Assembly: GCA_040880425.1 (NCBI GenBank)
Contig: JBBDIL010000003.1
Span: 9,225 to 73,224, forward strand
Origin: Burkholderiales bacterium
GTDB lineage: Bacteria > Pseudomonadota > Gammaproteobacteria > Burkholderiales > Eutrophovitaceae
Direction of reading: 5' to 3'
DNA length: 64,000 nt
A program made the position numbers and the translations under genes. How positions within the stretch are numbered: the stretch's first letter is position 1; every line of letters begins with the position of its first letter. Under the pieces are notes generated by a model that saw nothing but the letters and a program-made list of their open reading frames with translations, did not search any database and was not told where the DNA came from. Positions 19,781-51,261 of this stretch are shown piece after piece.

Positions 19781-19794
19781 TTGATGCGAATCAA
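19781..19794. promoter_or_regulatory. FNR/Dnr-type box TTGATGCGAATCAA in the divergent ctaA / oxidase intergenic region
   Basis: Perfect TTGAT-N4-ATCAA palindrome; about 89 bp from the ctaA start and about 100 bp from the 61-aa ORF start. Confidence 0.65.
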
Positions 19795-24309: not shown

Positions 24310-24323
24310 TTGATGCGCATCAA
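24310..24323. promoter_or_regulatory. FNR/Dnr-type box TTGATGCGCATCAA upstream of the cytochrome b fusion / HCO-like module
   Basis: Perfect palindrome; about 134 bp upstream of the proposed GTG 24451. Confidence 0.6.
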
Positions 24324-28467: not shown

Positions 28468-29904
28468 ATGAGATCAGGCGGTCAGGTTAACGGCACCGCA
28501 GGAACTTTCGGCCACCGTCTCGTGCTGCCGGCCCTGCCGCAGGTGCTCTATACGCTTGATGTGCCGCGGGATGCGCGCGCACGGCTGGCGCTGAACTGGA
28601 TCGTTCTCGGTCTGGTAGCGTTGATCGGAGCAGGCGTGTTTTCGGCCCTGCTGGTGGCATCGCGCACCCCCTTCGTGCAGAGCGTGTTTCCGCTGGTGGA
28701 CTTCTTCCGGGTTGCGCTGGTGGTGCATGTGGACCTTTCCGTGCTGGTCTGGTTTCTGGCGTTTGCCGGCGCGCTTTGGAGTCTGAACAGTACCCGGCGC
28801 TGGATGCCGCTGGGCTGGACTGCGCTTGCCGCCTGCGCCCTTGCCACACTGATGATGGTGATCGCACCGTTTGTCGGTCAGCCGGTGCCCATCATGAGCA
28901 ACTACATCCCGGTGCTCGACAGCCCGCTGTTTCGATGGTCACTGGTGGTGTTCGCCGCAGGGGTGGCGGCGGTTCTGCTGCGCGGCATGGGCGCGGTCCC
29001 CAAGGTGGGTGCGCAACTGGACGGAGCCGGCGTGCTGCGTTTCGGGCTGAACGCCGCGGCGATTTCAGCGGCGGTTGCGCTGGGCGCGTTCATCTGGTCC
29101 TGGCTCGCAGTGCCGCCGGCGCTCGACGGCAAGGCCTACTACGAATTGCTGTTCTGGGGCGGCGGCCACGTGCTGCAGTTCACCTGGACGCTGCTCATGT
29201 TCGCCGCATGGCTGTGGCTCGCCGGCGAAGGCGGTTGCCCGATTCCGCTCACGCCCCGCGTGACACTGCTGCTGTTCGCCATCACGCTCGCAATCGTGTT
29301 TCTGACTCCGGTGATCTATCTTGCGCACGACGTTACTTCAGTCGAGCATCACAAGCTGTTCACCTGGCAGATGCGCTTCGGCGGCGGGCTGACAATCCTG
29401 CCGATGGCGCTCGCGGTGGTGATTGCGCTGGCGCGCGCCGCGCCGGCCCGTGCCGAGGAGAAACCGCTGCGTGCGGCGCTGATCATGTCGCTCGCTCTGT
29501 TCGCCTTTGGAGGCCTGATCGGTGTGGGCATCGACGGCTCGAATGTGAAAGTCCCGGCGCATTATCACGGCAGCATCGTCGGCGTAACACTCGCGTTCAT
29601 GGGCGTGGTCTATCTCCTGCTGCCGCGCCTGGGGTTTGCGTCCCCGCCTTCGCGCGCTGCCGCACTGCAATGCTGGCTCTACGGTGCGGGGCAGATGCTG
29701 CATATCACCGGGCTGGTGTGGTCCGGCGGCTACGGCGTGCAGCGCAAGGTCGCAGGAGCGGAGCAAGGCCTGGATGCGATCGAGAAGATTGCGGGCATGG
29801 CACTGATGGGTTTCGGCGGCCTCGTCGCCGTGATCGGAGGACTGATGTTCCTGGTGATCGTGCTGCGCGTGCTGGCGCGCGGACGTACGGGTGCGCCACG
29901 GTAG
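28468..29904 (+). CDS. orphan haem-copper-oxidase subunit I-like protein (12-TM core, no cognate subunit II)
   Basis: All six canonical HCO His present: H87 (VVHVD), H234 (GGGHVLQF), H294/H295 (VEHHK), H365/H367 (VPAHYHGSIVGVTLAF, compare VPGHFHATVVVGTTLAF in the 570-aa subunit I); Phe, not Tyr, at His234+4; GGGGGAG SD. Confidence 0.7.
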   Translation: MRSGGQVNGTAGTFGHRLVLPALPQVLYTLDVPRDARARLALNWIVLGLVALIGAGVFSALLVASRTPFVQSVFPLVDFFRVALVVHVDLSVLVWFLAFAGALWSLNSTRRWMPLGWTALAACALATLMMVIAPFVGQPVPIMSNYIPVLDSPLFRWSLVVFAAGVAAVLLRGMGAVPKVGAQLDGAGVLRFGLNAAAISAAVALGAFIWSWLAVPPALDGKAYYELLFWGGGHVLQFTWTLLMFAAWLWLAGEGGCPIPLTPRVTLLLFAITLAIVFLTPVIYLAHDVTSVEHHKLFTWQMRFGGGLTILPMALAVVIALARAAPARAEEKPLRAALIMSLALFAFGGLIGVGIDGSNVKVPAHYHGSIVGVTLAFMGVVYLLLPRLGFASPPSRAAALQCWLYGAGQMLHITGLVWSGGYGVQRKVAGAEQGLDAIEKIAGMALMGFGGLVAVIGGLMFLVIVLRVLARGRTGAPR

Positions 29905-30369: not shown

Positions 30370-31379
30370 GCGGGCGCGCGCCCATCGAACTGGTCTGCCC
30401 CGCCGGCAGCCTGGCCGCGCTCAAGGCCGCGGTCGACGCCGGTGCCGACTGCGTGTATCTCGGTTTTCGCGACGACACGAACGCGCGCAACTTCAAGGGT
30501 CTGAACCTGGACGCGGCGGATCTTGCGGACGGATTGCGCTACGCGCACGCGCGCGGCCGGCGCGTGTTCGTGGCGATCAACACCTATGCGCAGGCGGGCG
30601 CCTTCGAGCGCTGGTGCCAGGCAGTCGACCGGGCGGCGCAGCTCGGTGCCGATGCGGTGATTCTGGCCGACCCTGCGCTGCTGCAGTACGCCGCTTCGGC
30701 ACAACCGGATCTGCGCCGGCACCTGTCGGTGCAGGGTTCGGCCACCACGTACGAGGCGATCAACTTCTACCGCAGACAGTTCGGCGTGTGCCGCGCTGTG
30801 CTGCCACGTGTGCTGGCGCTGCCGCAGATCGAGAAGCTGATGCAGCATGCCGAAACGGAGATCGAGGTGTTCGGCTTCGGCAGCCTGTGCGTGATGGTGG
30901 AAGGCCGCTGCGCGCTGTCGTCCTACGTCACCGGGCAGTCGCCGAATACGGCAGGCGCGTGTTCCCCGGCTGGCGCGGTACGCTGGCAGCAGACGCCGCG
31001 GGGCCTGGAATCGCGGCTCTCGGATGTGCTGATCAACTGCTATGCCGACGGCGAAAAGGCCGCGTATCCGACGCTGTGCAAGGGGCGCTATCGCGTCGAC
31101 GACGACGTCTACTACGCGATCGAGGAGCCGGCCAGCCTGAACACGCTCGCGCTGCTGCCGGAATTGCTGCGCATCGGCGTCTCGGCGATCAAGATCGAAG
31201 GCCGCCAGCGCAGCGTGGCCTATGTGGCGGAAGTCACGCGTACCTGGCGCGCGGCGATCGACGTTTGTGCCGCCGATCCCGCACGTTTCGCGCCGCGCGG
31301 CGCCTGGATGTCGCAGCTCGACCGGCTGGCCGAGGGCCAGCAGCACACGCTCGGTGCGTACCACCGGCCATGGCGGTGA
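30366..31379 (+). CDS. ubiU: U32-family protein UbiU (O2-independent ubiquinone hydroxylation)
   Basis: 'IELVCPAGSLAALKAAVDAGADCVYLGFRDDTNARNF' peptidase-U32 N-terminus, Cys cluster (CVMVEGRCALSS...C); followed by ubiV and an SCP2 gene; start set at GTG 30366. Confidence 0.75.
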   Translation: MSGRAPIELVCPAGSLAALKAAVDAGADCVYLGFRDDTNARNFKGLNLDAADLADGLRYAHARGRRVFVAINTYAQAGAFERWCQAVDRAAQLGADAVILADPALLQYAASAQPDLRRHLSVQGSATTYEAINFYRRQFGVCRAVLPRVLALPQIEKLMQHAETEIEVFGFGSLCVMVEGRCALSSYVTGQSPNTAGACSPAGAVRWQQTPRGLESRLSDVLINCYADGEKAAYPTLCKGRYRVDDDVYYAIEEPASLNTLALLPELLRIGVSAIKIEGRQRSVAYVAEVTRTWRAAIDVCAADPARFAPRGAWMSQLDRLAEGQQHTLGAYHRPWR

Positions 31380-31383
31380 CGCG

Positions 31384-32286
31384 GTGAAACTCGCGCTCGG
31401 ACCGCTGCTGTACTACTGGCCCCGCGACGCGGTGTTCGCTTTCTACGAGCGTGTCTCCCGGGCGCCGGTGGACATCGTCTATCTCGGTGAAGTCGTCTGC
31501 TCGCGTCGGCGCGAGCTGCGCATGCAGGACTTGATGGAGATTGCGGACGGACTGGCGCGTGCCGGCAAACAGGTGGTGCTTTCCACGCTGGCCCTGCCCG
31601 AGACCGACGCCGACCTGCGCCAGGTAAAGAAGGTGTGCGACAACAGCCGCCACGTGGTCGAGGCGAACGACATGGCGGCGGTCCACATGCTTTCACGCGC
31701 CGGGACCGCATTCGTCTCGGGACCGCACGTCAACGTCTACAACGGGCCCACCCTCAGGCTGCTGAGCGGACTCGGAGCCGAGCGCTGGGTCATGCCGCTG
31801 GAGCTGGCGTCGGACGCGCTCGCGGCGATCCTGCGCGACCGGCCGGAAGGCATGGAAACCGAGGTGTTCGTGCTCGGACGCATGCCGCTTGCGTTCTCGG
31901 CGCGATGCTTCACCGCACGCCATTACGATCGCGCCAAGGACGACTGCGGTTTCATGTGCCGGGATCACCCGGACGGTCTCGCTTTGCAGACACGCGAGCG
32001 TTCGCCCTTCCTCGTATTGAACGGCATCCAGACCCAGTCGTGGCGCGTGTACAACCTCGCGCGCGAACTACCGGCGCTCGCCGCAGCCGGTGTGGACGTG
32101 GTGCGCATCAGCCCGCAGTCAGTCGATACCATCGAGTTGCTGGAATGCGTGCGTGCGATGCTCGACCGGAATCCGGTGCCGGAGGGGCAGCTCGCGCATC
32201 TGGACGCATTGCTGCCGGCGGAAAGCTGTAACGGTTACTGGCACGGGCTGCCCGGCATGACGCGTGCGCCGGCAGAACCGGCATGA
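31384..32286 (+). CDS. ubiV: U32-family protein UbiV
   Basis: 'KLALGPLLYYWPRDAVFAFYERV...VDIVYLGEVVCSRRRE' YhbV-like; partner of ubiU; start set at GTG 31384. Confidence 0.75.
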   Translation: MKLALGPLLYYWPRDAVFAFYERVSRAPVDIVYLGEVVCSRRRELRMQDLMEIADGLARAGKQVVLSTLALPETDADLRQVKKVCDNSRHVVEANDMAAVHMLSRAGTAFVSGPHVNVYNGPTLRLLSGLGAERWVMPLELASDALAAILRDRPEGMETEVFVLGRMPLAFSARCFTARHYDRAKDDCGFMCRDHPDGLALQTRERSPFLVLNGIQTQSWRVYNLARELPALAAAGVDVVRISPQSVDTIELLECVRAMLDRNPVPEGQLAHLDALLPAESCNGYWHGLPGMTRAPAEPA

Positions 32287-36851: not shown

Positions 36852-37495
36852 GACCGCTTCCGCTGTGAGCGGTTCCGGTGCGAAGCCTTGCGGTCCCGGA
36901 TGCCCTCGAGAAAGATCGGAAAGACGCGTCGGGCCTGCTGCACCATGTTGCCAGCGGCGTGTCCACCGCCGTAGATCGATGTCTGCATGACCAAACCCTG
37001 CACTGTCCCGATGAACAGCGTGGCTGCGTCCTGCGCGTCCACGTCGGAACGCACCAGGCCCATTCTCTTGCTGTCTTCGAATAACTCTACGAGCCGTGCG
37101 CGATAGGTGCTCATCATTTCACGTACCAGCGGTGTTAGCTTCGAGCCGCGAGCCTGCTGCAGTTGCCGAAACAGCAATCTCGGGATTGCCGGGTGCTCCG
37201 CTACGAAGCCCACGTGGGCGTAGAACATGCGCTCCAGCATCTCCAGGGGATGTGAGCCGCCGGCGGCGGCGGCGTCCGTCACGGACAGCAGTCGGCTACC
37301 CGCCCAGCTGAGTACCGCAATCCAGATCGATTCTTTGGTCGGGAAGTGTCGGAAAATCGCGCCCTGCGTGACTCCCACCGCCTGCGCCATGTCCAGCGTG
37401 GTGATGTTTTCCACATCCTGTTCGCCGACGAGGTTGACCGCCGCGCGAACGATCTGCTGCTGACGCTCATCTGCTTTGAGTCGTTCTCTGGACAC
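36848..37495 (-). CDS. TetR/AcrR family transcriptional regulator
   Basis: N-terminal HTH 'ITTLDMAQAVGVTQGAIFRHFPTKESI'; first gene of the exporter operon. Confidence 0.85.
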   Translation of the reverse strand: MSRERLKADERQQQIVRAAVNLVGEQDVENITTLDMAQAVGVTQGAIFRHFPTKESIWIAVLSWAGSRLLSVTDAAAAGGSHPLEMLERMFYAHVGFVAEHPAIPRLLFRQLQQARGSKLTPLVREMMSTYRARLVELFEDSKRMGLVRSDVDAQDAATLFIGTVQGLVMQTSIYGGGHAAGNMVQQARRVFPIFLEGIRDRKASHRNRSQRKRS

Positions 37496-37553
37496 GACGA
37501 ACCTCCAAGTAAGTGATTGGGCACTATCTTAGAGTTGTGCGGCCAAGTGTTTC

Positions 37554-37567
37554 TTAATCTGCATCAA
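37554..37567. promoter_or_regulatory. FNR-like box TTAATCTGCATCAA upstream of nrdD
   Basis: One mismatch to TTGAT-N4-ATCAA; about 110 bp upstream of the nrdD start. Confidence 0.45.
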
Positions 37568-37671
37568 GAAAAACGGACTACGCACCGCATCCTGCCGGCT
37601 CGTGCATTGCTGCCTACCAGGTGTTGGCCTAGTGTTCGCTGGGAACACAAGATCTTGGGAGGAAAGACACG

Positions 37672-39714
37672 GTGCTTGCGGCGAGTGAGGTGGCGAAGAA
37701 CACACAGCATCCGGCCCTGCCGAAGCAGGTCCTCAAGCGCGACGGGACCGTGGTGGCGTTCGATGCGGACAAGATCACGAATGCGATCGCCCGCGCCGGC
37801 GGTGCCACCGGCGAATTCGGAGCCGAGGAAGCGGAGCGACTGTCGGCCCTTGTGACCAAGGTTCTCGCCTATCGCAAGCAAGCCGAAGCATTGCACATCG
37901 AGCGCATCCAGGACCTCGTCGAGCAGACGCTGGTCGCTGCCGACCATTTCAGGACCGCTCGCGCGTACATCGTCTACCGGGAACAGCATCGCAAGCTGCG
38001 CACCGACCGCCGAACGCTGGTCGACGTGGCGGCCTCGATTGACGAGTACTTGCAGCGCCAGGACTGGCGCATCAATGCCAACGCCAACCAGGGCTATTCG
38101 CTGGGCGGACTGATCCTGAACGTCTCCGGCAAGGTGATCGCCAATTACTGGCTCAGTCACGTCTACCCGCCCGAAGTCGGCGAGGCGCATCGCGCGGGTG
38201 ATATCCACATACACGATCTCGACATGCTCGCCGGCTACTGCGCCGGCTGGTCGCTGCGCACGCTGCTGGCCGAAGGCCTGAACGGCGTGCCGGGCAAAGT
38301 GGAGGCGGCGCCGCCGAAGCACATGTCGAGCGCGGTCGGGCAGATCGTCAACTTTCTCGGCACGCTGCAGAACGAGTGGGCCGGCGCGCAGGCGTTCAGT
38401 TCCTTCGATACCTACATGGCCCCATATGTGCGCAAGGATCGCATGAGCTATGCAGAGGTCAGGCAGTGCATCCAGGAGCTGATCTACAACCTGAACGTGC
38501 CGTCACGCTGGGGCACGCAGACGCCGTTCACCAATCTGACCTTCGACTGGACCTGCCCCGAGGACCTGAAACTGCAGGTGCCGGTGATCGCCGGGTGCGA
38601 AATGCCGTTTGCCTACGGCGAGCTGCAGGCCGAGATGGACATGATCAACCGTGCGTACATCGAAGTAATGACCACGGGCGACGCCAAAGGGCGGGTTTTT
38701 ACCTTTCCGATTCCGACCTACAACGTGACGCGCGATTTCCCCTGGGAGCATCCGAATACCGAGCTGCTGTTCGCCATGACCGCGAAGTACGGGTTGCCGT
38801 ATTTCCAGAATTTCATCAACTCGGACCTGCAGCCGAACATGATCCGCTCCATGTGCTGCCGGCTGCAGCTGGATCTGCGCGAGCTGCTGAAGCGGGGCAA
38901 TGGCCTGTTCGGCTCCGCCGAGCAGACGGGATCGCTCGGCGTGGTAACCGTAAACTGCGCCAGGCTGGGCTATCTGCATAAGGACGACGAGGCCGCTCTA
39001 TTCGTGCGGGCGGAGGCTCTTGCCGGACTGGCGAAAACCAGCCTGGAAATCAAGCGCAAGGTGATCCAGCGCCACATGGACGAAGGGCTGTTTCCATACA
39101 CGAAGCGTTACCTGGGGACGCTGCGCAACCACTTCTCGACGGTGGGGGTAAACGGCATCAACGAGATGATCCGCAACTTCAGCGACGATGCGTACGACAT
39201 TACGGATCCGCGCGGCCACGCGATGGCATGCCGGCTGCTCGACCGGCTGCGCGCACGCCTGCTGCGGTTCCAGGACGAAACCGGGCACATGTACAACCTC
39301 GAGGCGACCCCGGCGGAAGGCACCACCTACCGCTTTGCAAAGGAAGACCGCAAGCGCTGGCCGGACATCCTCCAGGCCGGCACGCCCGACATGCCCTACT
39401 ACACCAATTCCTCTCAGCTCCCGGTCGGTTTCACCGACGATCCGTTCGAGGCGCTCGAGCGTCAGGACGAGCTGCAATGCAAGTACACGGGCGGCACCGT
39501 GCTCCACCTGTACATGAGCGAACACATCAGTTCGCCAAGAGCTTGCATGACCCTCGTGCGTCGCGCGCTCGAACGTTTCCGTCTCCCATACATCACGGTG
39601 ACACCGACGTTTTCCATCTGCCCGAAACATGGCTATCTCTCCGGAGAGTACGAGTTCTGTCCGAAGTGCGACGAGATCCTCCTCGCACGGAAACGTCATG
39701 CAGTGGCAGCGTAA
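37672..39714 (+). CDS. nrdD: anaerobic ribonucleoside-triphosphate reductase, large fragment (ATP-cone, barrel, Zn site) ending before the glycyl-radical motif
   Basis: ATP-cone 'VLKRDGTVVAFDADKITNAIARA'; class III core; Zn site 'CPKHGYLSGEYEFCPKCD'; stops 11 codons later with no RVxGY motif; GGGAGG SD before GTG 37672. Confidence 0.85.
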   Translation: MLAASEVAKNTQHPALPKQVLKRDGTVVAFDADKITNAIARAGGATGEFGAEEAERLSALVTKVLAYRKQAEALHIERIQDLVEQTLVAADHFRTARAYIVYREQHRKLRTDRRTLVDVAASIDEYLQRQDWRINANANQGYSLGGLILNVSGKVIANYWLSHVYPPEVGEAHRAGDIHIHDLDMLAGYCAGWSLRTLLAEGLNGVPGKVEAAPPKHMSSAVGQIVNFLGTLQNEWAGAQAFSSFDTYMAPYVRKDRMSYAEVRQCIQELIYNLNVPSRWGTQTPFTNLTFDWTCPEDLKLQVPVIAGCEMPFAYGELQAEMDMINRAYIEVMTTGDAKGRVFTFPIPTYNVTRDFPWEHPNTELLFAMTAKYGLPYFQNFINSDLQPNMIRSMCCRLQLDLRELLKRGNGLFGSAEQTGSLGVVTVNCARLGYLHKDDEAALFVRAEALAGLAKTSLEIKRKVIQRHMDEGLFPYTKRYLGTLRNHFSTVGVNGINEMIRNFSDDAYDITDPRGHAMACRLLDRLRARLLRFQDETGHMYNLEATPAEGTTYRFAKEDRKRWPDILQAGTPDMPYYTNSSQLPVGFTDDPFEALERQDELQCKYTGGTVLHLYMSEHISSPRACMTLVRRALERFRLPYITVTPTFSICPKHGYLSGEYEFCPKCDEILLARKRHAVAA

Positions 39715-39726
39715 AGAAAGATGTAA

Positions 39727-39878
39727 CCGCAGAGACACCGAGGCGCGGAGATAAAGAGAACAGAAAGCGATTGGCAAGCCATGCGAGTGCTTTGGGCATT
39801 GATGACCAAGACAACCGTTTCCTGCTGCCTCGGTCTTCGTGCCGGATACGCCTCCCGTGCTTGACTGTACCTCTGCGG
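39727..39878. repeat. intergenic inverted-repeat element, copy 1 (between the nrdD large fragment and the B12-rSAM gene)
   Basis: CCGCAGAG (39727)/CTCTGCGG (39871) and CCGAGGC (39738)/GCCTCGG (39827); shares 'TCTTCGTGCC' and a 'GAC(C)AAG' core with copy 3. Confidence 0.5.
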
Positions 39879-39897
39879 TAAATGAAGGATTTTTTTT

Positions 39898-41760
39898 ATG
39901 AAACTGTTGTTGATCAACCCGAAATACCCGGAAAGCTTCTGGAGCTTCAAGTGGGCTGTGAAGGAGGTTCTGCCGCGCAAGCGTGCGGTGAATCCGCCGC
40001 TCGGCCTTGCGACGCTGGCGGCACTGAGCCCGACGGGCTGGGATGTCACCATCGTCGACGAGAACGTGGAATCGATCCTGCTTGCGCCGGATGCCGATCT
40101 GGTGGGTGTGTGCGGCATGGGAGTGCAATTCCCGAGGCAGACGGAGCTGCTCGCCTTCTATAGAGAGGCGGGCTATCCGACCGTCGCAGGAGGCAGCTTT
40201 GCCTCGCTCTGCCCGGAACGCTACGTGCCGCTGGCCGACAGTGTGGTTGCGGGAGAAGCCGAGTACATCTGGAAGCGGTTCTGTGCTGACTTCGAGACCG
40301 GCCGGGCGCAGCCGCTCTACCGCGAAACCGGAACGGTTTCGCTGTCCGATTCCCCGGTGCCGCGTTTCGACCTGCTCAAAATCGGGAAATACACGACGGC
40401 GACCTTGCAGTTCTCACGCGGATGCCCGTACATGTGCGAGTTCTGCGACATCATTGTCATGTTCGGCCGCAAGCCGCGGCACAAGAGTGTCGAGCAGGTC
40501 GGTCGCGAGCTTGACGCATTGCGCGCGACCGGTGCGCGCAATGCATTCTTCGTCGATGACAATCTGATCGGCCATCGCGCGGCGGCAAAAGAGCTGCTGC
40601 GCTACCTGGCGGAGTACCAGCGGCAACACGGTTACCCGTTCAATTTCGGTACGGAAGTGTCGCTCAACCTTGCGCAGGACAAGGAACTGCTTGAGCTGTT
40701 CCGGGCGGCGGGGTTCTCCTGGGTATTCGTGGGCATCGAATCTTCCGACCCGGAGGCGCTGAAGCAGACGCGCAAGACGCAGAATACGCACGAAGACGTA
40801 CTGACTTCGGTGCGCCGCATCTATGCACACGATATCGACGTGCTGGGCGGTTTCATCGTCGGCTTCGATTCGGACACCGAGGCAACCTTCGGACACCAGG
40901 AACGCTTTATCCTGGATTCCGGCGTGCAGGCGGCGATGGTCGGTCTGCTGACCGCGCTGCCGAAGACGCCCTTGTACCAGCGGCTCGAAAAGGAAGGCAG
41001 GTTGCGTCCGGACGTCGCCGGAACGGACAACACCAAGCCGGCGACCAACGTCGAACCAAAGCACATGTCCTACGAGGCGATGGTGGCAGGCTACGAGACC
41101 ATGTACCGGCGGCTCACCAGACCCGCGGCGATAGCGGAACGCATCCGCAACAAATTGCGCTACATGCGAGCGCCGGTCTACCAGGGCGAGTATTCGACCG
41201 TGGATCGTATCGGCATCATCTGGCGGCTGCTGACGAAGGGGATCCTGCCCGGCGGCCTGCCGCGCATATGGCATTTCCTGTTTTCTTTGCCGCTGTTCGC
41301 GCCGCGCAAGCTGCCGGTGGCGATCGTGGACTGGATTGCGGGTCTGTCCATGCGCGATTACGTGCAGCGGCATTTCCCGATTGCACCGAGCGATGCCGGC
41401 AGGGCTCAGCAACTGTTCGAGGCATTGCTGCAGGGTGCCCGCCGTCACGGTGCAGCTGTCAGAGTGTCGTTGTCGTTGCGTACGGTGGCGCCTTCAGTGT
41501 CGATCAGCCTGCGCGGTGGTCTGCCGGGTGCGTTCTTCCGGCGTGCGGCGCGTAAACTGGATCGCCTGCTTTCCAGAACGCAGGCCAGCGTCACGCTGCG
41601 TATCGATGCATTGCGTGAGTCCGAACTGCCCCACCTTCATCGCCTGCTCGAACGTCTCGCCCGGCATGGCGACCGCATTTCCGTGATCGTCAGCAAGCGC
41701 CTGCGGGGTGTGGTGAAAATCGATTCGTCGGTATTCCGGCTCGTGCTCGCGCGAGAGTAA
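39898..41760 (+). CDS. B12-binding-domain radical SAM protein (DUF4070-type C-terminus)
   Basis: N-terminal B12-binding-like domain (LLLINPKYPE...), 'SRGCPYMCEFCDI' CxxxCxxC; lies between the two nrdD pieces. Confidence 0.8.
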   Translation: MKLLLINPKYPESFWSFKWAVKEVLPRKRAVNPPLGLATLAALSPTGWDVTIVDENVESILLAPDADLVGVCGMGVQFPRQTELLAFYREAGYPTVAGGSFASLCPERYVPLADSVVAGEAEYIWKRFCADFETGRAQPLYRETGTVSLSDSPVPRFDLLKIGKYTTATLQFSRGCPYMCEFCDIIVMFGRKPRHKSVEQVGRELDALRATGARNAFFVDDNLIGHRAAAKELLRYLAEYQRQHGYPFNFGTEVSLNLAQDKELLELFRAAGFSWVFVGIESSDPEALKQTRKTQNTHEDVLTSVRRIYAHDIDVLGGFIVGFDSDTEATFGHQERFILDSGVQAAMVGLLTALPKTPLYQRLEKEGRLRPDVAGTDNTKPATNVEPKHMSYEAMVAGYETMYRRLTRPAAIAERIRNKLRYMRAPVYQGEYSTVDRIGIIWRLLTKGILPGGLPRIWHFLFSLPLFAPRKLPVAIVDWIAGLSMRDYVQRHFPIAPSDAGRAQQLFEALLQGARRHGAAVRVSLSLRTVAPSVSISLRGGLPGAFFRRAARKLDRLLSRTQASVTLRIDALRESELPHLHRLLERLARHGDRISVIVSKRLRGVVKIDSSVFRLVLARE

Positions 41761-41778
41761 AGCAGGAAGCAGAGGCGC

Positions 41779-41914
41779 AAAACACGAAGGCACGAAGAAA
41801 GACAAACCCGGAAGAGAAGCCCAAAGCAATGGCCGCAAACACAGAGTCCGACAAGACTTCTACGCCCTTGGGTCTCCGGGGTCATGTCGGTGTTCCTGGT
41901 GTTTCGCTTCCGGG
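41779..41914. repeat. intergenic inverted-repeat element, copy 2 (between the B12-rSAM gene and the NrdD glycyl-radical ORF)
   Basis: 19 nt 'AAACACGAAGGCACGAAGA' identical to the copy 3 left arm; 'CAGAGTCCGACAAG' and 'GTGTTTCGCT' also shared with copy 3. Confidence 0.6.
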
Positions 41915-41941
41915 AGGCGCGTTTTTTTGTTGAAGGAGGAG

Positions 41942-42127
41942 ATGATGACAGTACGGACTCAAACAACCCAAACGCAAATCAGGCTGCGCGACGAGGAGAG
42001 GCAGCGATGCGAGGTCTGGACGCGGGTGATGGGGTATCACCGGCCGGTGGCATCGTTCAACATCGGCAAACAGGGCGAGCACCGCGAGCGAAGGTTCTTC
42101 GATGAGTCATGCGCGAGCCTGTCCTGA
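41942..42127 (+). CDS. stand-alone glycyl-radical C-terminal piece of NrdD (61 aa from ATG 41942)
   Basis: 'CEVWTRVMGYHRPVASFNIGKQGEHRERRFF' is the class III RNR glycyl-radical motif; GAAGGAGGAG immediately upstream of ATGATG 41942; different frame from the large fragment. Confidence 0.7.
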   Translation: MMTVRTQTTQTQIRLRDEERQRCEVWTRVMGYHRPVASFNIGKQGEHRERRFFDESCASLS

Positions 42128-42860
42128 AACGGCAAGCCGTATGCGCGCGTGCCGGTCATCCGTCGACGTTTTTCGCGTCGGCGGGTTCGTGCCGTTCTCC
42201 ACGGTCGACTTTCCCGGCAAACTCGCCGCGGTTGTGTTCTGTCAGGGCTGCCCGTGGCGCTGTTCCTATTGCCACAATACGCACCTTCAGTCCCGGCGGG
42301 CACAGACGCCCTACGCCTGGCGCGATCTGCTTGCGCAACTGTCGGCCCGCCGTGGAATGCTCGATGCAGTGGTGTTCAGTGGCGGCGAACCCACTGCACA
42401 GGTTTCGCTGCCGCGTGCCGCCGCGCACGTGCACGGCGCCGGCTTCCGCGTCGGTCTGCATACCGCGGGCGTCTATCCGGATCGTCTGCAGCAGACGCTA
42501 CCTTTGCTGGACTGGGTAGGCATCGACATCAAGACGGTTCCGATGGAGTACGCCTCGCTCACCGGGGCAGGCAACGCCGCCGGCCGCGCGTGGGAGAGCC
42601 TGCGGTTGATCCTCTCCAGCGGGGTCGACTACGAAGTGCGCACCACCGTGCACCCCGATCTGGTCACGGCACGCCACCTTCGCAGGCTCGCGCTCGGGCT
42701 TGCACATTTCGGCGTCCGCCGTTATGCGTTGCAGGCCTTCCGGCCGCAGGGCTGCGACGATGGCCAGCTGGCGCGCTCGGTGGCGCCGGACTATCTGACC
42801 CCGCGCCTCGGCAGGGAGATTGGCTCGCTGTTCGAGCATTTCGAAATACGAGGTGGCTGA
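42102..42860 (+). CDS. nrdG: anaerobic ribonucleotide reductase activating protein (radical SAM)
   Basis: 'VGGFVPFSTVDFPGKLAAVVFCQGCPWRCSYCHN'; alternative start ATG 42141. Confidence 0.85.
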   Translation: MSHARACPETASRMRACRSSVDVFRVGGFVPFSTVDFPGKLAAVVFCQGCPWRCSYCHNTHLQSRRAQTPYAWRDLLAQLSARRGMLDAVVFSGGEPTAQVSLPRAAAHVHGAGFRVGLHTAGVYPDRLQQTLPLLDWVGIDIKTVPMEYASLTGAGNAAGRAWESLRLILSSGVDYEVRTTVHPDLVTARHLRRLALGLAHFGVRRYALQAFRPQGCDDGQLARSVAPDYLTPRLGREIGSLFEHFEIRGG

Positions 42861-43173
42861 CCGAGTGATCGTTGCGTGTCCTTGATCCGGATTAAGCAAT
42901 CGACCGCCGGGCCGAGCCAAGACATAAAACAATGAAAATCACCAGGCCGTTTTCGGTAGCCCGCGTAGCGCAAGTTACGCAAAGGCGCCTGATCCCATGG
43001 AACGTTGCCGCAACATAATTCGCACAGGTAGCAGACCGCGGCGGCGAAGTCCTCCAATCGTCTTCACAGCTTCAACGTCGCGTTCCCGCTGCCCCGGCGA
43101 TGTCGGGAACGGATGGCGCCCGCCGCTGCCGGTGACCTTTGCCATCGTTCACATTGCTGCAAGGAGAAACTCG

Positions 43174-43251
43174 ATGAGACAGTGGACAGATCCGGCATAC
43201 AGCGACATTCGCCTTGGCTTCGAAGTCACCGCGTACGTCTACGTTCGCTGA
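43174..43251 (+). CDS. pqqA: PQQ precursor peptide PqqA (25 aa)
   Basis: MRQWTDPAYSDIRLGFEVTAYVYVR: W..P, E-x3-Y (EVTAY) signature; AAGGAGA 6 nt upstream. Confidence 0.85.
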   Translation: MRQWTDPAYSDIRLGFEVTAYVYVR

Positions 43252-43321
43252 GGTTGAGCGGGGGCTTGTGCCAGAGCGTACGGCGCAAGCGCCCCGTGCT
43301 CGCCATACCGAGACTCAGCCC

Positions 43322-43615
43322 ATGAGCGTCCAAAATCATTTCGAGACGGATGATCTTCCAACTCTTAATCCGTTGTTCATGTTCCGCTGGGAAGAAACCC
43401 AGCACGCGTATGTGCTGCTGTACCCGGAGGGCGTGGTCAAGCTCAACGATACGGCGGGGGAGATCCTGAAACGGTGTACCGGAAAGCTGACGGTGGCGGA
43501 ACTGACTGCCGAACTTGGGCGGCTGTTCGACGCAGACCCACAGCAGCTCGAAGGCAGCGTCCTGAAATTTCTGGAGGTGTCGCATGCCAAAGGATGGATC
43601 CGTCGTCAGGCTTGA
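43322..43615 (+). CDS. pqqD: PQQ biosynthesis peptide chaperone PqqD
   Basis: 'FMFRWEETQHAYVLLYPEGVVKLNDTAGEILKRC...TVAELTAEL' PqqD pattern; start at the internal Met of track ORF 43214..43615. Confidence 0.8.
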   Translation: MSVQNHFETDDLPTLNPLFMFRWEETQHAYVLLYPEGVVKLNDTAGEILKRCTGKLTVAELTAELGRLFDADPQQLEGSVLKFLEVSHAKGWIRRQA

Positions 43616-44726
43616 CGGCGAAGGCAAGCCGCTGTGGCTTGTTCTGGAGCTGACTTACCGCTGCCCGCTTGCCTGCCCGTGGTGCAGCAATCCGGTCGAC
43701 TACGCGCGCTACGAGAACGAGCTTTCCACCGAGGAGTGGAAGCGCGTGCTGCGAGAAGGGCGCGAACTCGGCGCACTGCAGCTCGGATTCACCGGTGGGG
43801 AGCCGATGCTGCGGAAGGATCTGGAGGAGCTGGTCGGCGAGGCGCACCGGCTTGGCTACTACACCAACCTGATCACCTCGGGTATCGGCTTGAACGAGCC
43901 GCGGCTGATTGCTCTCAAGAACGCGGGACTCAACCAGATCCAGCTGTCCATCCAGTCGAGCCGCAGGGACATGACCGACGCACTGGTCGGAACCCGTGCG
44001 TTCGATCACAAGCTGAAGGTCGCGCGGCTGATCAAAGCATACGGCTTTCCGATGGTGCTGAACGTTCCCGTGTTCCGGCAGAACGTCGAGCTCGCGGCGG
44101 AAATACTGGATATGGCAGAGGACATCGGCACGGACTATCTCGAATTCGCCAACATCCAGTACTACAACTGGGCCATGGTCAACCGCGACGAACTGTTGCC
44201 CTCGCTGCAGCAGTTGCAGAGTGCCGAAGCGGTGGTGCAGAAGGCGCGCAAGCGGCTCGAGGGCAGGATGACGATTTACTTCGTGATCCCGGACTATTAC
44301 GAACAGCGGCCCAAGGCCTGTATGAACGGATGGGGTTCGATTCATCTGACCATCGCGCCCGATGGTGCTGCCCTTCCGTGCCAGGAGGCGCGGGTCATCG
44401 AGGAACTCGCCTTTCCTACGGTTCGCGAGAAAAGCCTTGCCTGGCTATGGAACGAATCCCCAGCCTTTCGCAAATTCCGCGGCAACGACTGGATGAAGGA
44501 GCCGTGCCGCAGTTGCAGCGAGAACGAGAAAGATTACGGCGGCTGCCGCTGTCAGGCGCTGCTACTGACCGGTGATGCTGCCAATACCGACCCTGCATGC
44601 GCGAAATCGCCGCATCATCATGTGATCGTCGAGGCGGTGGCGCGCGCCAATGACCCTGCTCGCGCGCAGCAGCCGCTGGTGATGCGCCGCGTCGGAACAA
44701 GCGAAGTCGATATCGCGCTCGGATGA
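43584..44726 (+). CDS. pqqE: PQQ biosynthesis radical SAM/SPASM enzyme PqqE
   Basis: 'PLWLVLELTYRCPLACPWCSNP' and C-terminal SPASM Cys (CRSCSENEKDYGGCRCQA). Confidence 0.85.
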   Translation: MPKDGSVVRLDGEGKPLWLVLELTYRCPLACPWCSNPVDYARYENELSTEEWKRVLREGRELGALQLGFTGGEPMLRKDLEELVGEAHRLGYYTNLITSGIGLNEPRLIALKNAGLNQIQLSIQSSRRDMTDALVGTRAFDHKLKVARLIKAYGFPMVLNVPVFRQNVELAAEILDMAEDIGTDYLEFANIQYYNWAMVNRDELLPSLQQLQSAEAVVQKARKRLEGRMTIYFVIPDYYEQRPKACMNGWGSIHLTIAPDGAALPCQEARVIEELAFPTVREKSLAWLWNESPAFRKFRGNDWMKEPCRSCSENEKDYGGCRCQALLLTGDAANTDPACAKSPHHHVIVEAVARANDPARAQQPLVMRRVGTSEVDIALG

Positions 44727-44857
44727 AGAACCCGTTCGACTCAGCCTTCGGCACCATCGTGCTCGGCGTCGGCCTTACTGTCGGGCTCTGGTTGCTCGCA
44801 CGCTGGTGCGTCGCCGGATTCTGATGCCTGTGATCGACGCGTGAAGGAACTGAGCCA

Positions 44858-48271: not shown

Positions 48272-49846
48272 TCAGTGACTCGTGCCGCGGGAACGGGTGA
48301 TCTTGTTGTACACGTTGTATTTGCCCGATGGTTTGTTCATCGGCAGGCGTTTGACTTCCTCCAGCGTATTCGCATCGTAAATCACCAGCGCGCCTTCCAG
48401 GTCCCAGACGCTTGCGAGCGCGTAGCGTCCGTCGCGGGTGAATTCGATATGCGCCGCGGTCTTTCCAGGCGACGGTGTCAGGTTTCGCACGACCTCCAGG
48501 GCGAGCTTGTCGATGACCTGCAGCGTATCCCGCGTCGGGCCGTTCATGCCATCTACCCATGCATAGCGGCTCTCCTCGTGACTGCGCAGGAAGAAGCCCG
48601 GTCCCGCGGTCTCGATCTGTTTTACGGTCTCCCAGGTTTGCATGTCGATTACGGTGACCAAGCCATGCGCGAGGTTCGGCGTGGCCATCACTCGTCGGCC
48701 GTTGAGTTCCCAGTTGATGCCTGAGCCGAGGTGCGGCAGTCCGGTAAGTGCAACATCCGCGATCTTTCGGCGAACGTCGAGATTGACCACCTGGCCTTTC
48801 CCGCCGCCTCGCTCCGCGCCGACTACATAAGCGTAGCTTGGGTCAAAGAAGAAGTCGTCCAGAATCGCATCGAGCGGAATCCGTCGGATGGGAAAAGGGC
48901 CTCGCGCGGCAACGCCCTCCTTCAGCCGGTAGTCGTGTACCAGACCTTCGTAGACCGGCTCCGCGCCGACGCGGTAGGGAATCTCCCAGATTTCCGGCAC
49001 GTCCTTCAGTGCCGCGACGAAGCTGCCGCGCGGCGCGGCATCGTAAACCGCGGACACACGCGAGGAAGTGCCGGAGAGGTCGGCAACCGGAATGATCTTC
49101 ACCGGTGCGAGGTCGACCGCATCGAGCACTACCAGCGTGTGCGGCAGGTAATTGGCCACCATCGCGTAGCGCCCGTCGGAAGACAATGCCAGGTTTCGGG
49201 TGTTGATCCCGGCGCGAACCTCCGCCACGGTCTTGAGGTTCCAGATGTCGAATTTGGAGATCCAGCCGTCGCGCGAAGCGAAATAGACGTAGCGTCCATC
49301 GGGCGAGAACTTCGGGCCGCCGTGGAGCGCATAGTGTGTGCGAATACGCGCGAGCGGCTCGAAGCGGTCGCCGTCGAGAATGGTTGCATGATGGTCTCCG
49401 GTTTCCACCACGACAAACAGGTTGAGCGGATCGGCGTCGAACGCCGGCTGGTCTGGCAGGCTCCCGGACGCGTGATGCACGCGGCGGGAATCGGCGATTT
49501 GCGGCAGATCCCACTGCGGCACCCGTTCCAACGGGCGATATATATAGTCCACGAGTGCCTGCGTATCCTGCGCGGAAAGCTGGTTGGAGAAGCCGGGCAT
49601 CTGCGTCGCGATCCGCCCGTCCGCAATAATGCGTGCGGCCTCGCCCGGTTTTACACGCGAAAGATTCTCCGGCAGCAGAGCTGGGCCCATCCCGCCAAGC
49701 CGGTCAGCCCCGTGACACGACGCGCAGTGCTGGCGGTACAGCTCGTCGGGCTCGGCCGCCAGGGTAGTCTGCGCAACGGCCAGGAGGATTAAACACGGTA
49801 GAAACGAAACACGAAGGCACGAAGACACGAAGAAAAGAAGAATCAC
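48272..49846 (-). CDS. nirN: cytochrome cd1-like dihydro-haem d1 dehydrogenase NirN
   Basis: 'CASCHG' c-domain plus cd1 beta-propeller (homologous to NirS/NirF here); start set at GTG 49846 (or 49828), giving a signal peptide ...FLPCLILLAVAQTTLA/AEP; the long 838-aa track ORF is not credible. Confidence 0.8.
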   Translation of the reverse strand: MILLFFVSSCLRVSFLPCLILLAVAQTTLAAEPDELYRQHCASCHGADRLGGMGPALLPENLSRVKPGEAARIIADGRIATQMPGFSNQLSAQDTQALVDYIYRPLERVPQWDLPQIADSRRVHHASGSLPDQPAFDADPLNLFVVVETGDHHATILDGDRFEPLARIRTHYALHGGPKFSPDGRYVYFASRDGWISKFDIWNLKTVAEVRAGINTRNLALSSDGRYAMVANYLPHTLVVLDAVDLAPVKIIPVADLSGTSSRVSAVYDAAPRGSFVAALKDVPEIWEIPYRVGAEPVYEGLVHDYRLKEGVAARGPFPIRRIPLDAILDDFFFDPSYAYVVGAERGGGKGQVVNLDVRRKIADVALTGLPHLGSGINWELNGRRVMATPNLAHGLVTVIDMQTWETVKQIETAGPGFFLRSHEESRYAWVDGMNGPTRDTLQVIDKLALEVVRNLTPSPGKTAAHIEFTRDGRYALASVWDLEGALVIYDANTLEEVKRLPMNKPSGKYNVYNKITRSRGTSH

Positions 49847-49990
49847 CGGGAATCGCGCATGGCGTACGTGAGTACGTGGCCAATTCGCGGCGTTGACCGG
49901 AACAGCCGTTGCGAATACGGGGAAAAGTGCGTCGTCCCAAAGAAACAGTCCGACAAGTATTCCTTCGTGTCTTCGTGCCTTCGTGTTTCG
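49801..49990. repeat. intergenic inverted-repeat element, copy 3 (between nirJ and nirN)
   Basis: Perfect 28-bp inverted repeat CGAAACACGAAGGCACGAAGACACGAAG (49805..49832) / reverse complement (49963..49990) around 130 bp. Confidence 0.75.
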
Positions 49991-50049
49991 CTCTTTCATG
50001 CGGTTCTCGCATTTCACGTTTTCTCGGGTCTTCGTGTACCGCATCTGCG

Positions 50050-51261
50050 TCATTCCGGTAATACCGTCGCGGTGCGCTGCCGGCGGGAGTAGGGCGTTAC
50101 GCTCAGGCGTTCGCGTGAGCTCTCGACGCCGATCTCTTCGTCTTCCAGATAGCAGCCGGGGTCCTCCTCCCAGGGGTCGCCGGTAAGCTGCCATGCGCGG
50201 GTGCGCGTGTTTCCGCCGCAAACGTCGAGAAAACCGCACTCGCGGCAGCGGCCTTTCACCGGTCGCGGCCGCCGCCTGAGTCCCGCCATGAGCGAGTCGG
50301 TCGCATCGGACCAGATTTCTGAAAAGCGACGTTCGCGCACATTGCCGAGCGTGTATTCCCACCACATCGTGTCCGGGTGCACGTTGCCGAGATTGTCGAT
50401 ATTGGCGATACCGACGCCGGTGGCGTTGCCACCCCATTGGCGCAGCCGCGCGCGCAGCGCGGGTTCGGCTTGGGGATGGTGGCGTTTGACCCACAGCAGC
50501 AGCCAGGCCGCGTCGGCGTCGTTGTTGCCGGTGACGAACTCGGTCGGCAGACCTCGCTCGAGGTGATCCCACGCCGCCCGGATGAGCAGGTCGATCGCCC
50601 ATCGCGCGGAGAGATGCATGGCATCGCGCGCACGGTTGACGTTGCCGCGGCCCGCGTAATTCAGGTGTGACAGGTAGAACTTGTCCACGCGTTCCCGCTC
50701 TACCAGCGCCAGCAGCTGCGGCAGGTGCGGTGCGTTGTCGCCTGTCAGCGTAAAGCGCACGCCCGCCTTGATGCCGGCATCCCGGCACAACCGTAAGCCT
50801 TCGAGCGCGCCGTCGAAGGCGCCCGCCTTGCGGCGAAAGCGGTCGTGCGTATCGCCGATGCCATCCAGGCTGATTCCCACATAATCGAAGCCGATTGCCC
50901 TGATCGCGTTCAGGTTATGCTGGTCGATCAGAGTGCCGTTGGTGGACAGCCCGACGTAAAAACCCAGGCTCTTTGCGCGCCCGGCGATCGTGAAAATGTC
51001 CGGGTGCAGCAATGGTTCCCCGCCGGACAGAATCAGCACCTGTACGCCGAAACGCCTGAGGTCATCCATCACGCCGAAGATTTCCGGCGTTGTCAGCTCG
51101 CCCGCAAAGTCGTGGTCCGTCGAGATCGAATAACAATGCTGGCACGCCAGGTTGCAGCGCCGGATCAAGTTCCAGATCACCACCGGCCCGGAAGGCGCGC
51201 GTTGCGACGAGGGCGCTGGCTGCCCGCGGATTCCCTTCAGATACTGTGTCAATCGGAACAT
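50050..51261 (-). CDS. nirJ: haem d1 biosynthesis radical SAM protein NirJ
   Basis: 'VIWNLIRRCNLACQHCYS' CxxxCxxC; C-terminal auxiliary Cys cluster (CRECGFLDVCGG). Confidence 0.9.
   Translation of the reverse strand: MFRLTQYLKGIRGQPAPSSQRAPSGPVVIWNLIRRCNLACQHCYSISTDHDFAGELTTPEIFGVMDDLRRFGVQVLILSGGEPLLHPDIFTIAGRAKSLGFYVGLSTNGTLIDQHNLNAIRAIGFDYVGISLDGIGDTHDRFRRKAGAFDGALEGLRLCRDAGIKAGVRFTLTGDNAPHLPQLLALVERERVDKFYLSHLNYAGRGNVNRARDAMHLSARWAIDLLIRAAWDHLERGLPTEFVTGNNDADAAWLLLWVKRHHPQAEPALRARLRQWGGNATGVGIANIDNLGNVHPDTMWWEYTLGNVRERRFSEIWSDATDSLMAGLRRRPRPVKGRCRECGFLDVCGGNTRTRAWQLTGDPWEEDPGCYLEDEEIGVESSRERLSVTPYSRRQRTATVLPE

Follow-up and report, generated by a model that had tools for sequence, protein, structure and literature searches.

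A probable naturally split class III ribonucleotide reductase whose radical glycine lies on a separate small protein in Burkholderiales and other Proteobacteria

In existing descriptions, a glycyl-radical enzyme is a single chain with its radical glycine built in. Here we analyse an nrdD locus, for a class III (anaerobic) ribonucleotide reductase (RNR), in a stretch of 64,000 nucleotides (nt) from a metagenome-assembled genome (MAG) of a Burkholderiales bacterium (contig JBBDIL010000003.1, positions 9,225 to 73,224), hereafter the window. Like the one-piece NrdD and NrdG of E. coli, T4, Thermotoga maritima, Prevotella copri and Neisseria bacilliformis, the locus encodes an ATP-cone, a barrel, a finger loop, a zinc ribbon, a hairpin and an adjacent NrdG, but its last ~35 residues, which contain the radical glycine, form a separate polypeptide with its own translation start, and conserved extensions at both new chain ends occur only in the split form. 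The locus very likely encodes a naturally split, functional heteromeric class III RNR in which the radical subunit is a separate peptide. A first-pass annotation of this DNA had proposed a functional two-piece enzyme rather than a dead gene, and that proposal is upheld by the split at 75 of 75 evaluable loci, by purifying selection, by the start signals of the small gene and by the related locus on pHG1 of Cupriavidus necator H16.

Among described systems, GrcA/YfiD (with T4 Y06I) has several traits in common with the small NrdD piece. Both are small and stand alone, both combine a disordered N-terminal part with a glycyl-radical hairpin, and both are presumably activated by their cognate radical S-adenosylmethionine (SAM) activase and docked into a large partner without a usable radical domain. 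GrcA/YfiD had been named at first pass as the closest precedent, which is apt for the mechanism but neither for homology nor for role. The small NrdD piece is not a homologue of GrcA, belonging to Pfam NRDD and not to Gly_radical, and it serves an RNR, not a formate lyase. Moreover, GrcA rescues a full-length enzyme after oxygen cleavage, whereas the split NrdD partner never has a radical domain (75 loci), and the small protein would therefore be obligatory rather than a spare. According to a June 2026 review, spare-part proteins are confined, among the glycyl-radical classes, to the formate lyases, and a 2021 YfiD study asks whether such proteins exist for other glycyl-radical enzymes. The split class II reductase NrdJa/NrdJb of Pseudomonas aeruginosa is likewise an RNR chain in two consecutive open reading frames (ORFs), broken near a C-terminal zinc-finger region; it is, however, B12-dependent and has no glycyl radical, whereas in the class III split it is the radical site itself that is supplied in trans. 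The C-terminal NrdJ piece is also far larger than 60 amino acids (aa). RNR reviews treat the NrdJa/NrdJb split as exceptional. In T4 nrdD (sunY) the coding sequence is interrupted too, but RNA splicing restores one ORF there, whereas in the window the first ORF ends at a stop codon, a spacer or whole gene follows, and translation begins anew at a second start codon, with no intron RNA signature.

The sequences indicate two separately translated polypeptides, with the radical glycine on the small one, and both are conserved together with the activase gene (Table 1). On direct reading, the large ORF starts with a GTG codon that has GGGAGG just 5' of it. Its ATP-cone (aa 19-107) scores 81.6 bits and its NRDD domain (PF13597) 570.6 bits against a cut-off of 26.2 (Pfam E=5e-171), and the large piece reaches 1128.9 bits with NF006126 (PRK08270; cut-off 548) and 442.4 bits with TIGR02487 (cut-off 326). 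The finger-loop cysteine motif MCCR occupies aa 394-397 (38851-38862); the finger-loop classes MGCR and MCCR have been set out in PMC9669993, where MCCR is the thioredoxin-type subclass. The predicted zinc ribbon comprises CPKH at aa 650-653 and CPKC at aa 663-666 (39619-39669), and its C, its H and the CxxC pair are invariant across an alignment (A2). The ORF ends with the basic tail EILLARKRHAVAA (39673-39711), 13 codons after CPKCD and not 11 codons past the zinc site as noted at first pass. It terminates in ...CPKCDEILLARKRHAVAA and contains no glycyl-radical motif RVxGY. The large piece retains all the predicted catalytic motifs other than the radical glycine.

The glycyl-radical segment CEVWTRVMGYHRPV... 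(RVMGY) is found instead on a 61-aa ORF, 2.2 kb downstream and in a frame other than that of the large ORF, with the radical glycine at Gly31 (codon 42032-42034). The start signals of this small ORF are a Shine-Dalgarno sequence, GAAGGAGGAG (41932-41941), followed by ATGATG, the second ATG (41945) giving a 60-aa version. This frame and position, the start signals and the nrdG gene that follows had all been noted before and are confirmed; in addition, the nrdG ORF overlaps the small ORF by 26 nt, and the true nrdG start could be further downstream. The split itself is also real, but the 2.2-kb gap between the pieces is not empty, as it holds a complete gene for a 620-aa B12-binding radical-SAM protein that had gone unmentioned. 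In a Pfam scan the sole match of the small ORF was PF13597 NRDD, with no match to Gly_radical or IPR011140 (pyruvate formate-lyase (PFL) type), and a sequence search of the PDB with the small ORF alone gave one chance match and neither GrcA nor PFL. AlphaFold2 modelled the small protein as a beta-hairpin (27-34/37-45) with the glycine at its tip, a disordered N-terminus and low-confidence ends (mean predicted local distance difference test score 62). A Foldseek search of the PDB with this model found no match below E=4, the model being too small and too low in confidence.

The two pieces fit together on profiles of intact NrdD. On PRK08270/NF006126 (684 positions) the large piece covers 3-649 and the small piece 649-682, and on Pfam NRDD (562 positions) they cover 2-528 and 531-562. 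Since the pieces abut on the same models, the match of the small ORF is not a chance motif, and the pieces together make up one NrdD that has been cut at a single position. Once joined into a chimera, the large C-terminus and the small ORF align unbroken across the junction with the NrdD structures of Thermotoga maritima, Prevotella copri and T4, and the radical glycine pairs with theirs. Unsplit relatives, found with the chimeric query, read FSICPxHGYLxGE..CPxC, then 3 to 18 variable residues, then CEVWTRVMGY(H/F)RPV; those bearing a name are from actinobacterial taxa. These alignments place the break in the short, variable stretch that connects the zinc ribbon to the CEVWTRVMGY strand, which leads to the radical glycine. 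The same locus layout is present in the independent Logan assembly SRR27977663 (L009) and in an NCBI Burkholderiales MAG, whose 61-aa small ORF (MEX0957782.1) is deposited as 'anaerobic ribonucleoside-triphosphate reductase'. This recurrence of the layout makes an assembly artefact unlikely.

A second split point upstream of the zinc ribbon was considered on account of 80-128-aa 'NrdD' proteins on long contigs and was rejected, as their contexts proved to be frameshift-fragmented calls of unsplit genes. At L096 (2424-4288) and L097 (1433-3186), unsplit NrdD appears as several 95-154-aa coding sequences (CDSs) with uncalled stretches, probably through assembly frameshift errors; at L096 the first NrdD fragment is preceded, ~1.2 kb upstream and beyond two other genes, by a thioredoxin gene. 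Fragmented unsplit genes of this type served as intact-junction examples.

Clustered at 90% identity, homologues of the small ORF fall into more than 6000 groups, and every one of the best 120 is 56-85 aa long. Among representatives at 50% identity, 441 match the small ORF at E<=1e-10, and 149 of the 150 best measure 53-104 aa; the lone size exception, P0304 (988 aa), was set aside as an unrelated repeat protein that contains GRCEVWTR about ten times by chance. A scan of one genome per species found relatives of the small ORF in at least 593 species genomes, and the best 80 of these matches were used for a comparison of loci, 75 of them being evaluable in that the large C-terminus was found. 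Betaproteobacteria (Burkholderiales, Thiobacillus, Sulfuricella, Iodobacter, Vogesella) predominate among the best 80, which also include Gammaproteobacteria (Pseudoxanthomonas, Lysobacteraceae, Pseudomonas yangonensis, Nitrincola) and some others. Records of plasmids and megaplasmids extend the list to Ralstonia, Cupriavidus, Bradyrhizobium and Paracoccus. Both pieces are kept as genes of their own in many Beta-, Gamma- and Alphaproteobacteria. At each of the 75 evaluable loci the large ORF comes to its stop codon ahead of the glycine motif, with the break always falling after the zinc ribbon and ahead of the CEVWTRVMGY strand. Relatives of the small piece are typically 49-85 aa long, with a variable N-terminal extension and a conserved hairpin. 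In the Pseudomonas mendocina group (Pseudomonas yangonensis, L070 6025-6174; P0470 cluster) the small piece has just 49 aa and an extension of 14 residues. The nrdD product of P. aeruginosa (PA1920), ~675 aa long, has the size of the large piece alone, and this gene too may be split. Its distribution marks the split as a widespread and apparently ancient architecture, not one particular to the window locus.

The small ORF shows signs of selection, and both new chain ends are conserved. The small-ORF motif was located in 88 loci and its start could be assigned in 87, and the tail of the large piece was evaluated in 83. All three relative frames (0, 1 and 2) occur, and over the 75 loci the WTRV motif lies 34 to 388 nt beyond the large-ORF stop. 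The small ORF begins with ATG in 86 of 87 loci and in 84 of 87 follows a Shine-Dalgarno core of 4 nt or more, and its N-terminal extension has a median of 22 codons (range 14-36 residues). Over the 35-codon core of the small ORF, entropy at codon positions 1, 2 and 3 is 0.31, 0.27 and 1.04 bits and synonymous changes make up 69% of differing codons; the small protein is therefore under clear purifying selection. The small-ORF stop often overlaps a candidate nrdG start, most commonly by 4 nt, suggesting translational coupling. The tail of the large piece has the consensus EE-x-L-A-x-K-R-x-x-L-A-A before the stop codon and a net charge of about +2.3, with L+4 in 71 and K+7 in 78 of the 83 loci. 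Before CEVW, the small piece has an acidic segment, (I/V)-x-L-x-D-(E/D)-E-R-Q-(R/P), with a net charge of about -1.7, and conservation within its N-terminal extension is high (L-8 in 88, D-6 in 80, E-4 in 85 and R-3 in 88 of 88 loci). Unsplit relatives have neither of these conserved extensions.

The split layout also occurs in strains with published physiology. On pHG1 of C. necator H16, a gene for a 676-aa 'ribonucleoside triphosphate reductase' and a 66-aa CDS stand next to nrdG, and norB adjoins. The 66-aa CDS (H16_RS32675; L090 3944-4144) bears the RefSeq symbol nrdD (WP_011154154) and is deposited as 'oxidoreductase' under AAP85991.1; small CDSs of this kind go under the database names 'anaerobic ribonucleoside-triphosphate reductase', 'oxidoreductase' or 'hypothetical'. 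In Ralstonia solanacearum the genes are laid out and split in the same way, and the stop of the large ORF overlaps the start of the small one (ATGA). The original 1999 H16 paper is said to give NrdD as 76.2 kDa, which would fit the 676-aa large piece. The C. metallidurans genome paper relates, from earlier H16 work (Siedow 1999), that pHG1 nrdDG is essential for full denitrification and that plasmid-free H16 grows poorly on nitrate unless cobalamin lets the class II NrdJ substitute. The same paper lists nrdDG of CH34 as Rmet_5137 and Rmet_5139 and passes over Rmet_5138, which is the small nrdD piece of that strain. On these reports a split locus of this type works in vivo, presumably with the small gene taking part.

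In the mechanism that we propose, the 680-aa protein would contribute three parts, namely the allosteric ATP-cone, a catalytic barrel that includes the cysteine finger loop, and the zinc ribbon, while the ~60-aa protein would contribute a beta-hairpin bearing the radical glycine. NrdG, using S-adenosylmethionine, would take a hydrogen from Gly31 while the small protein is free or after it has docked. The hairpin would then enter the barrel of the large protein, like the C-terminus in one-piece NrdD, and the radical would pass to the finger-loop cysteine to give a thiyl radical. The MCCR loop suggests thioredoxin-type chemistry, as discussed for Neisseria bacilliformis NrdD (PMC9669993). The two ends may be helped to meet by their conserved extensions, basic in the tail of the large piece and acidic in the L-x-D-E-E-R-Q segment of the small one, whose opposite charges are suggestive of docking. 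Oxygen cleaves glycyl-radical proteins at the glycine. After such cleavage the loss to the split enzyme would be a 7-kDa peptide instead of a 76-kDa subunit, a saving that would benefit facultative denitrifiers.

The B12-binding radical-SAM gene between the two pieces bears on how the split arose. Its 620-aa product matches PF02310, PF04055 and PF13282, all above cut-off, and no NCBIfam subfamily reaches its own cut-off with it. In about 75 of the 80 genome loci the nrd cluster lacks such a gene, and it is therefore a recurrent neighbour and not the cause of the split; the pieces stand 2.2 kb apart in the window because the gene occupies the gap of an already split pair. It appears to be a lineage-specific tenant of a pre-existing intergenic gap, and shared anaerobic regulation is the simplest reading of its neighbourhood with nrd genes.

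In the window a whole, foreign-looking gene does part the two pieces, and at the related locus L095 the large piece is fragmented, as would be expected had a radical-SAM insertion broken nrdD and left its remnants to decay. Such a dead gene is nevertheless extremely improbable: about 70 loci show the same break without an inserted gene, the small ORF is under strong purifying selection and keeps its ATG and Shine-Dalgarno sequence, the GC (guanine plus cytosine) content of the radical-SAM gene (0.621) equals that of neighbouring genes, the order large piece, radical-SAM gene, small piece, nrdG is itself conserved in L010, L092 and L093 with 73-79% identity, and the split H16 locus appears to be functional. 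It is scarcely credible, too, that an intron, an intein, trans-splicing, programmed frameshifting or ribosome bypass restores a single polypeptide, for all that the T4 nrdD group I intron provides a precedent and that the ORFs are just tens of nt apart in some loci. Rfam, group I and II introns included, gave no match over 37000-43500 even at E<=1, which argues against any intron or riboswitch there and agrees with the first-pass view that the T4 intron is a different mechanism. Neither intein nor homing-endonuclease domains were found, the intervening ORF matching radical-SAM, B12-binding and DUF4070 in Pfam, and the extension of the small piece, variable and at most 36 residues long, is too short for half of a split intein. 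The three relative frames, the varying gaps, the translated gene inside the gap of the window and the start signals on each small ORF likewise speak against a restored chain.

Stand-alone glycyl-radical proteins do exist, as GrcA/YfiD proves, and the small protein might accordingly be an optional spare for another, intact NrdD, with the large piece radical-independent or regulatory; the MAG was searched for nrdD within the 64-kb window, which leaves room for such a partner. We consider this decidedly improbable, since in every locus the small gene lies directly between a glycine-less large piece and nrdG (the few loci with an additional radical-SAM gene apart), the large piece retains all catalytic motifs, and C. 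necator H16 is described with one class III system, the split one on pHG1. The small protein could also be a substrate, methylated for example, of the neighbouring B12-radical-SAM enzyme, the three genes forming one functional unit. The radical-SAM gene does recur by nrd genes at three positions (between the pieces, after the small piece and after nrdG), and its product has weak similarity, all far below cut-offs, to B12 radical-SAM methyltransferases that modify proteins or peptides. This, too, is very unlikely, as most split loci do without the gene, a close homologue is unlinked to nrd in L094, and co-location may just reflect shared anaerobic regulation.

Several points weigh against a functional two-piece RNR at this locus. 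We infer the association of the large and small pieces from their sequences, and no test of the small ORF, whether biochemical or genetic, came to light; the H16 deletions in print hit nrdD and nrdG and not the 66-aa gene. No second nrdD was found within the 64-kb window that was searched, and an intact one elsewhere in the MAG is conceivable. A terminator-like hairpin (41899-41929) stands just before the small ORF; if it is active, the small gene and nrdG would need a promoter of their own, and a sigma-70 scan showed none for them. The oxygen-damage rationale for the split, though it fits the facultative, denitrifying lifestyle of many named carriers, is a hypothesis. As to newness, no description of a split NrdD was found in the searchable literature or in reviews of RNRs and glycyl-radical enzymes, and subscription papers may mention one.

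Table 1. Features of the split nrdD locus and its surroundings (positions in the window unless a locus label is given)
Feature	Location	Strand	Description
nrdD large piece	37672..39714	+	680 aa; ATP-cone, catalytic barrel, finger loop, zinc ribbon, basic tail (from ORF listing and profile searches)
nrdD small piece	41942..42127	+	61 aa; variable N-terminal extension, L-x-D-E-E-R-Q-R-C, then EVWTRVMGYHRPVASFNIGKQGEHRERRFF
nrdG activase	42102..42860	+	radical SAM, CPWRCSYC 42249-42272; TIGR02495 (NrdG2) 198.2 bits against a cut-off of 131.15
B12-binding radical-SAM/DUF4070 gene	39898..41760	+	620 aa; CPYMCEFC aa 176-183 (40423-40446)
Spacer 1	39715..39897	+	T8 run (39890-39897) directly before the radical-SAM ATG; folding z = -1.6, unexceptional
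Spacer 2	41761..41941	+	terminator-like hairpin + T7 (41899-41929), then GAAGGAGGAG; folding z = +0.2
FNR/Anr-type box TTAATCTGCATCAA	37554..37567	+	1 mismatch to TTGAT-N4-ATCAA; ~105 nt upstream of nrdD start
Second FNR-type box TTGATCCGGATTAA	42882..42895	+	downstream of nrdG, ahead of PqqD-like/radical-SAM-SPASM genes
Radical-SAM homologue between nrdD pieces	window, L009, L010, L092, L093		73-79% protein identity
Radical-SAM homologue between small piece and nrdG	L017, L021		
Radical-SAM homologue after nrdG	L095		
Radical-SAM homologue unlinked to nrd	L094		
Neighbourhood genes	28468-29904, 31222-32286, 48272-50788 (-)		COX1/NorB-like oxidase, U32 peptidase, cytochrome cd1 nitrite-reductase-like protein with c-type cytochrome domain

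The FNR/Anr-type box ahead of the large piece is a candidate anaerobic promoter element. With up to 2 mismatches allowed, the window contains 26 such boxes against 11.7 expected, a number that no shuffle reached; two are perfect, and further ones include 19781-19794 and 24310-24323. The surroundings look like a denitrification/anaerobiosis island, as at the pHG1 and Ralstonia loci. Downstream of nrdG are a PqqD-like gene (43214-43615), a radical-SAM/SPASM (PqqE-like) gene (43584-44726) and an overlapping 33-aa hydrophobic ORF (44723-44824); this set is kept beside the nrd cluster in L009, L092 and L093 and may be a peptide-modification cluster.

A mobile cassette, with the two spacers around the radical-SAM gene as mutual repeats, was considered and rejected, as the spacers have weak collinear inverted matches but their local alignment scores fall within the shuffled range. 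In L092 (4781-5000, 6867-7068) and L093 (4777-5000, 6870-7149), the spacers open with purine-rich tandem repeats (GCAGAGGC four times; CACGGAGGA three times) and close with the complements of those repeats, giving long hairpins that reach -120 kcal/mol in L093. The window spacers contain no significant equivalent of this repeat-bracketing.

A class III reductase with its radical site always in trans would answer the question posed by the 2021 YfiD study. The split form is conserved in hundreds of species, including the tractable models Cupriavidus necator H16, Ralstonia solanacearum, C. metallidurans CH34 and the Pseudomonas mendocina group, and it would offer a natural system in which to study how an activase handles a free radical domain, how that domain docks into the large subunit and how oxygen damage is coped with. 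Surveys that count 'NrdD' by the large gene alone, or drop CDSs of ~60 aa, will mis-describe split enzymes, and the large gene alone in heterologous expression would give a dead enzyme. More tentatively, and with the balance of probability against it, the ~60-residue protein may act as an exchangeable 'radical cartridge', loaded by NrdG while free or loosely bound, plugged into the large subunit and swapped after oxygen cleavage. If this is true, the split NrdD would be the first obligate two-polypeptide glycyl-radical enzyme and its small piece the first spare-part-type protein outside the formate lyases, and facultative denitrifiers would regain anaerobic DNA synthesis without remaking the 76-kDa subunit.

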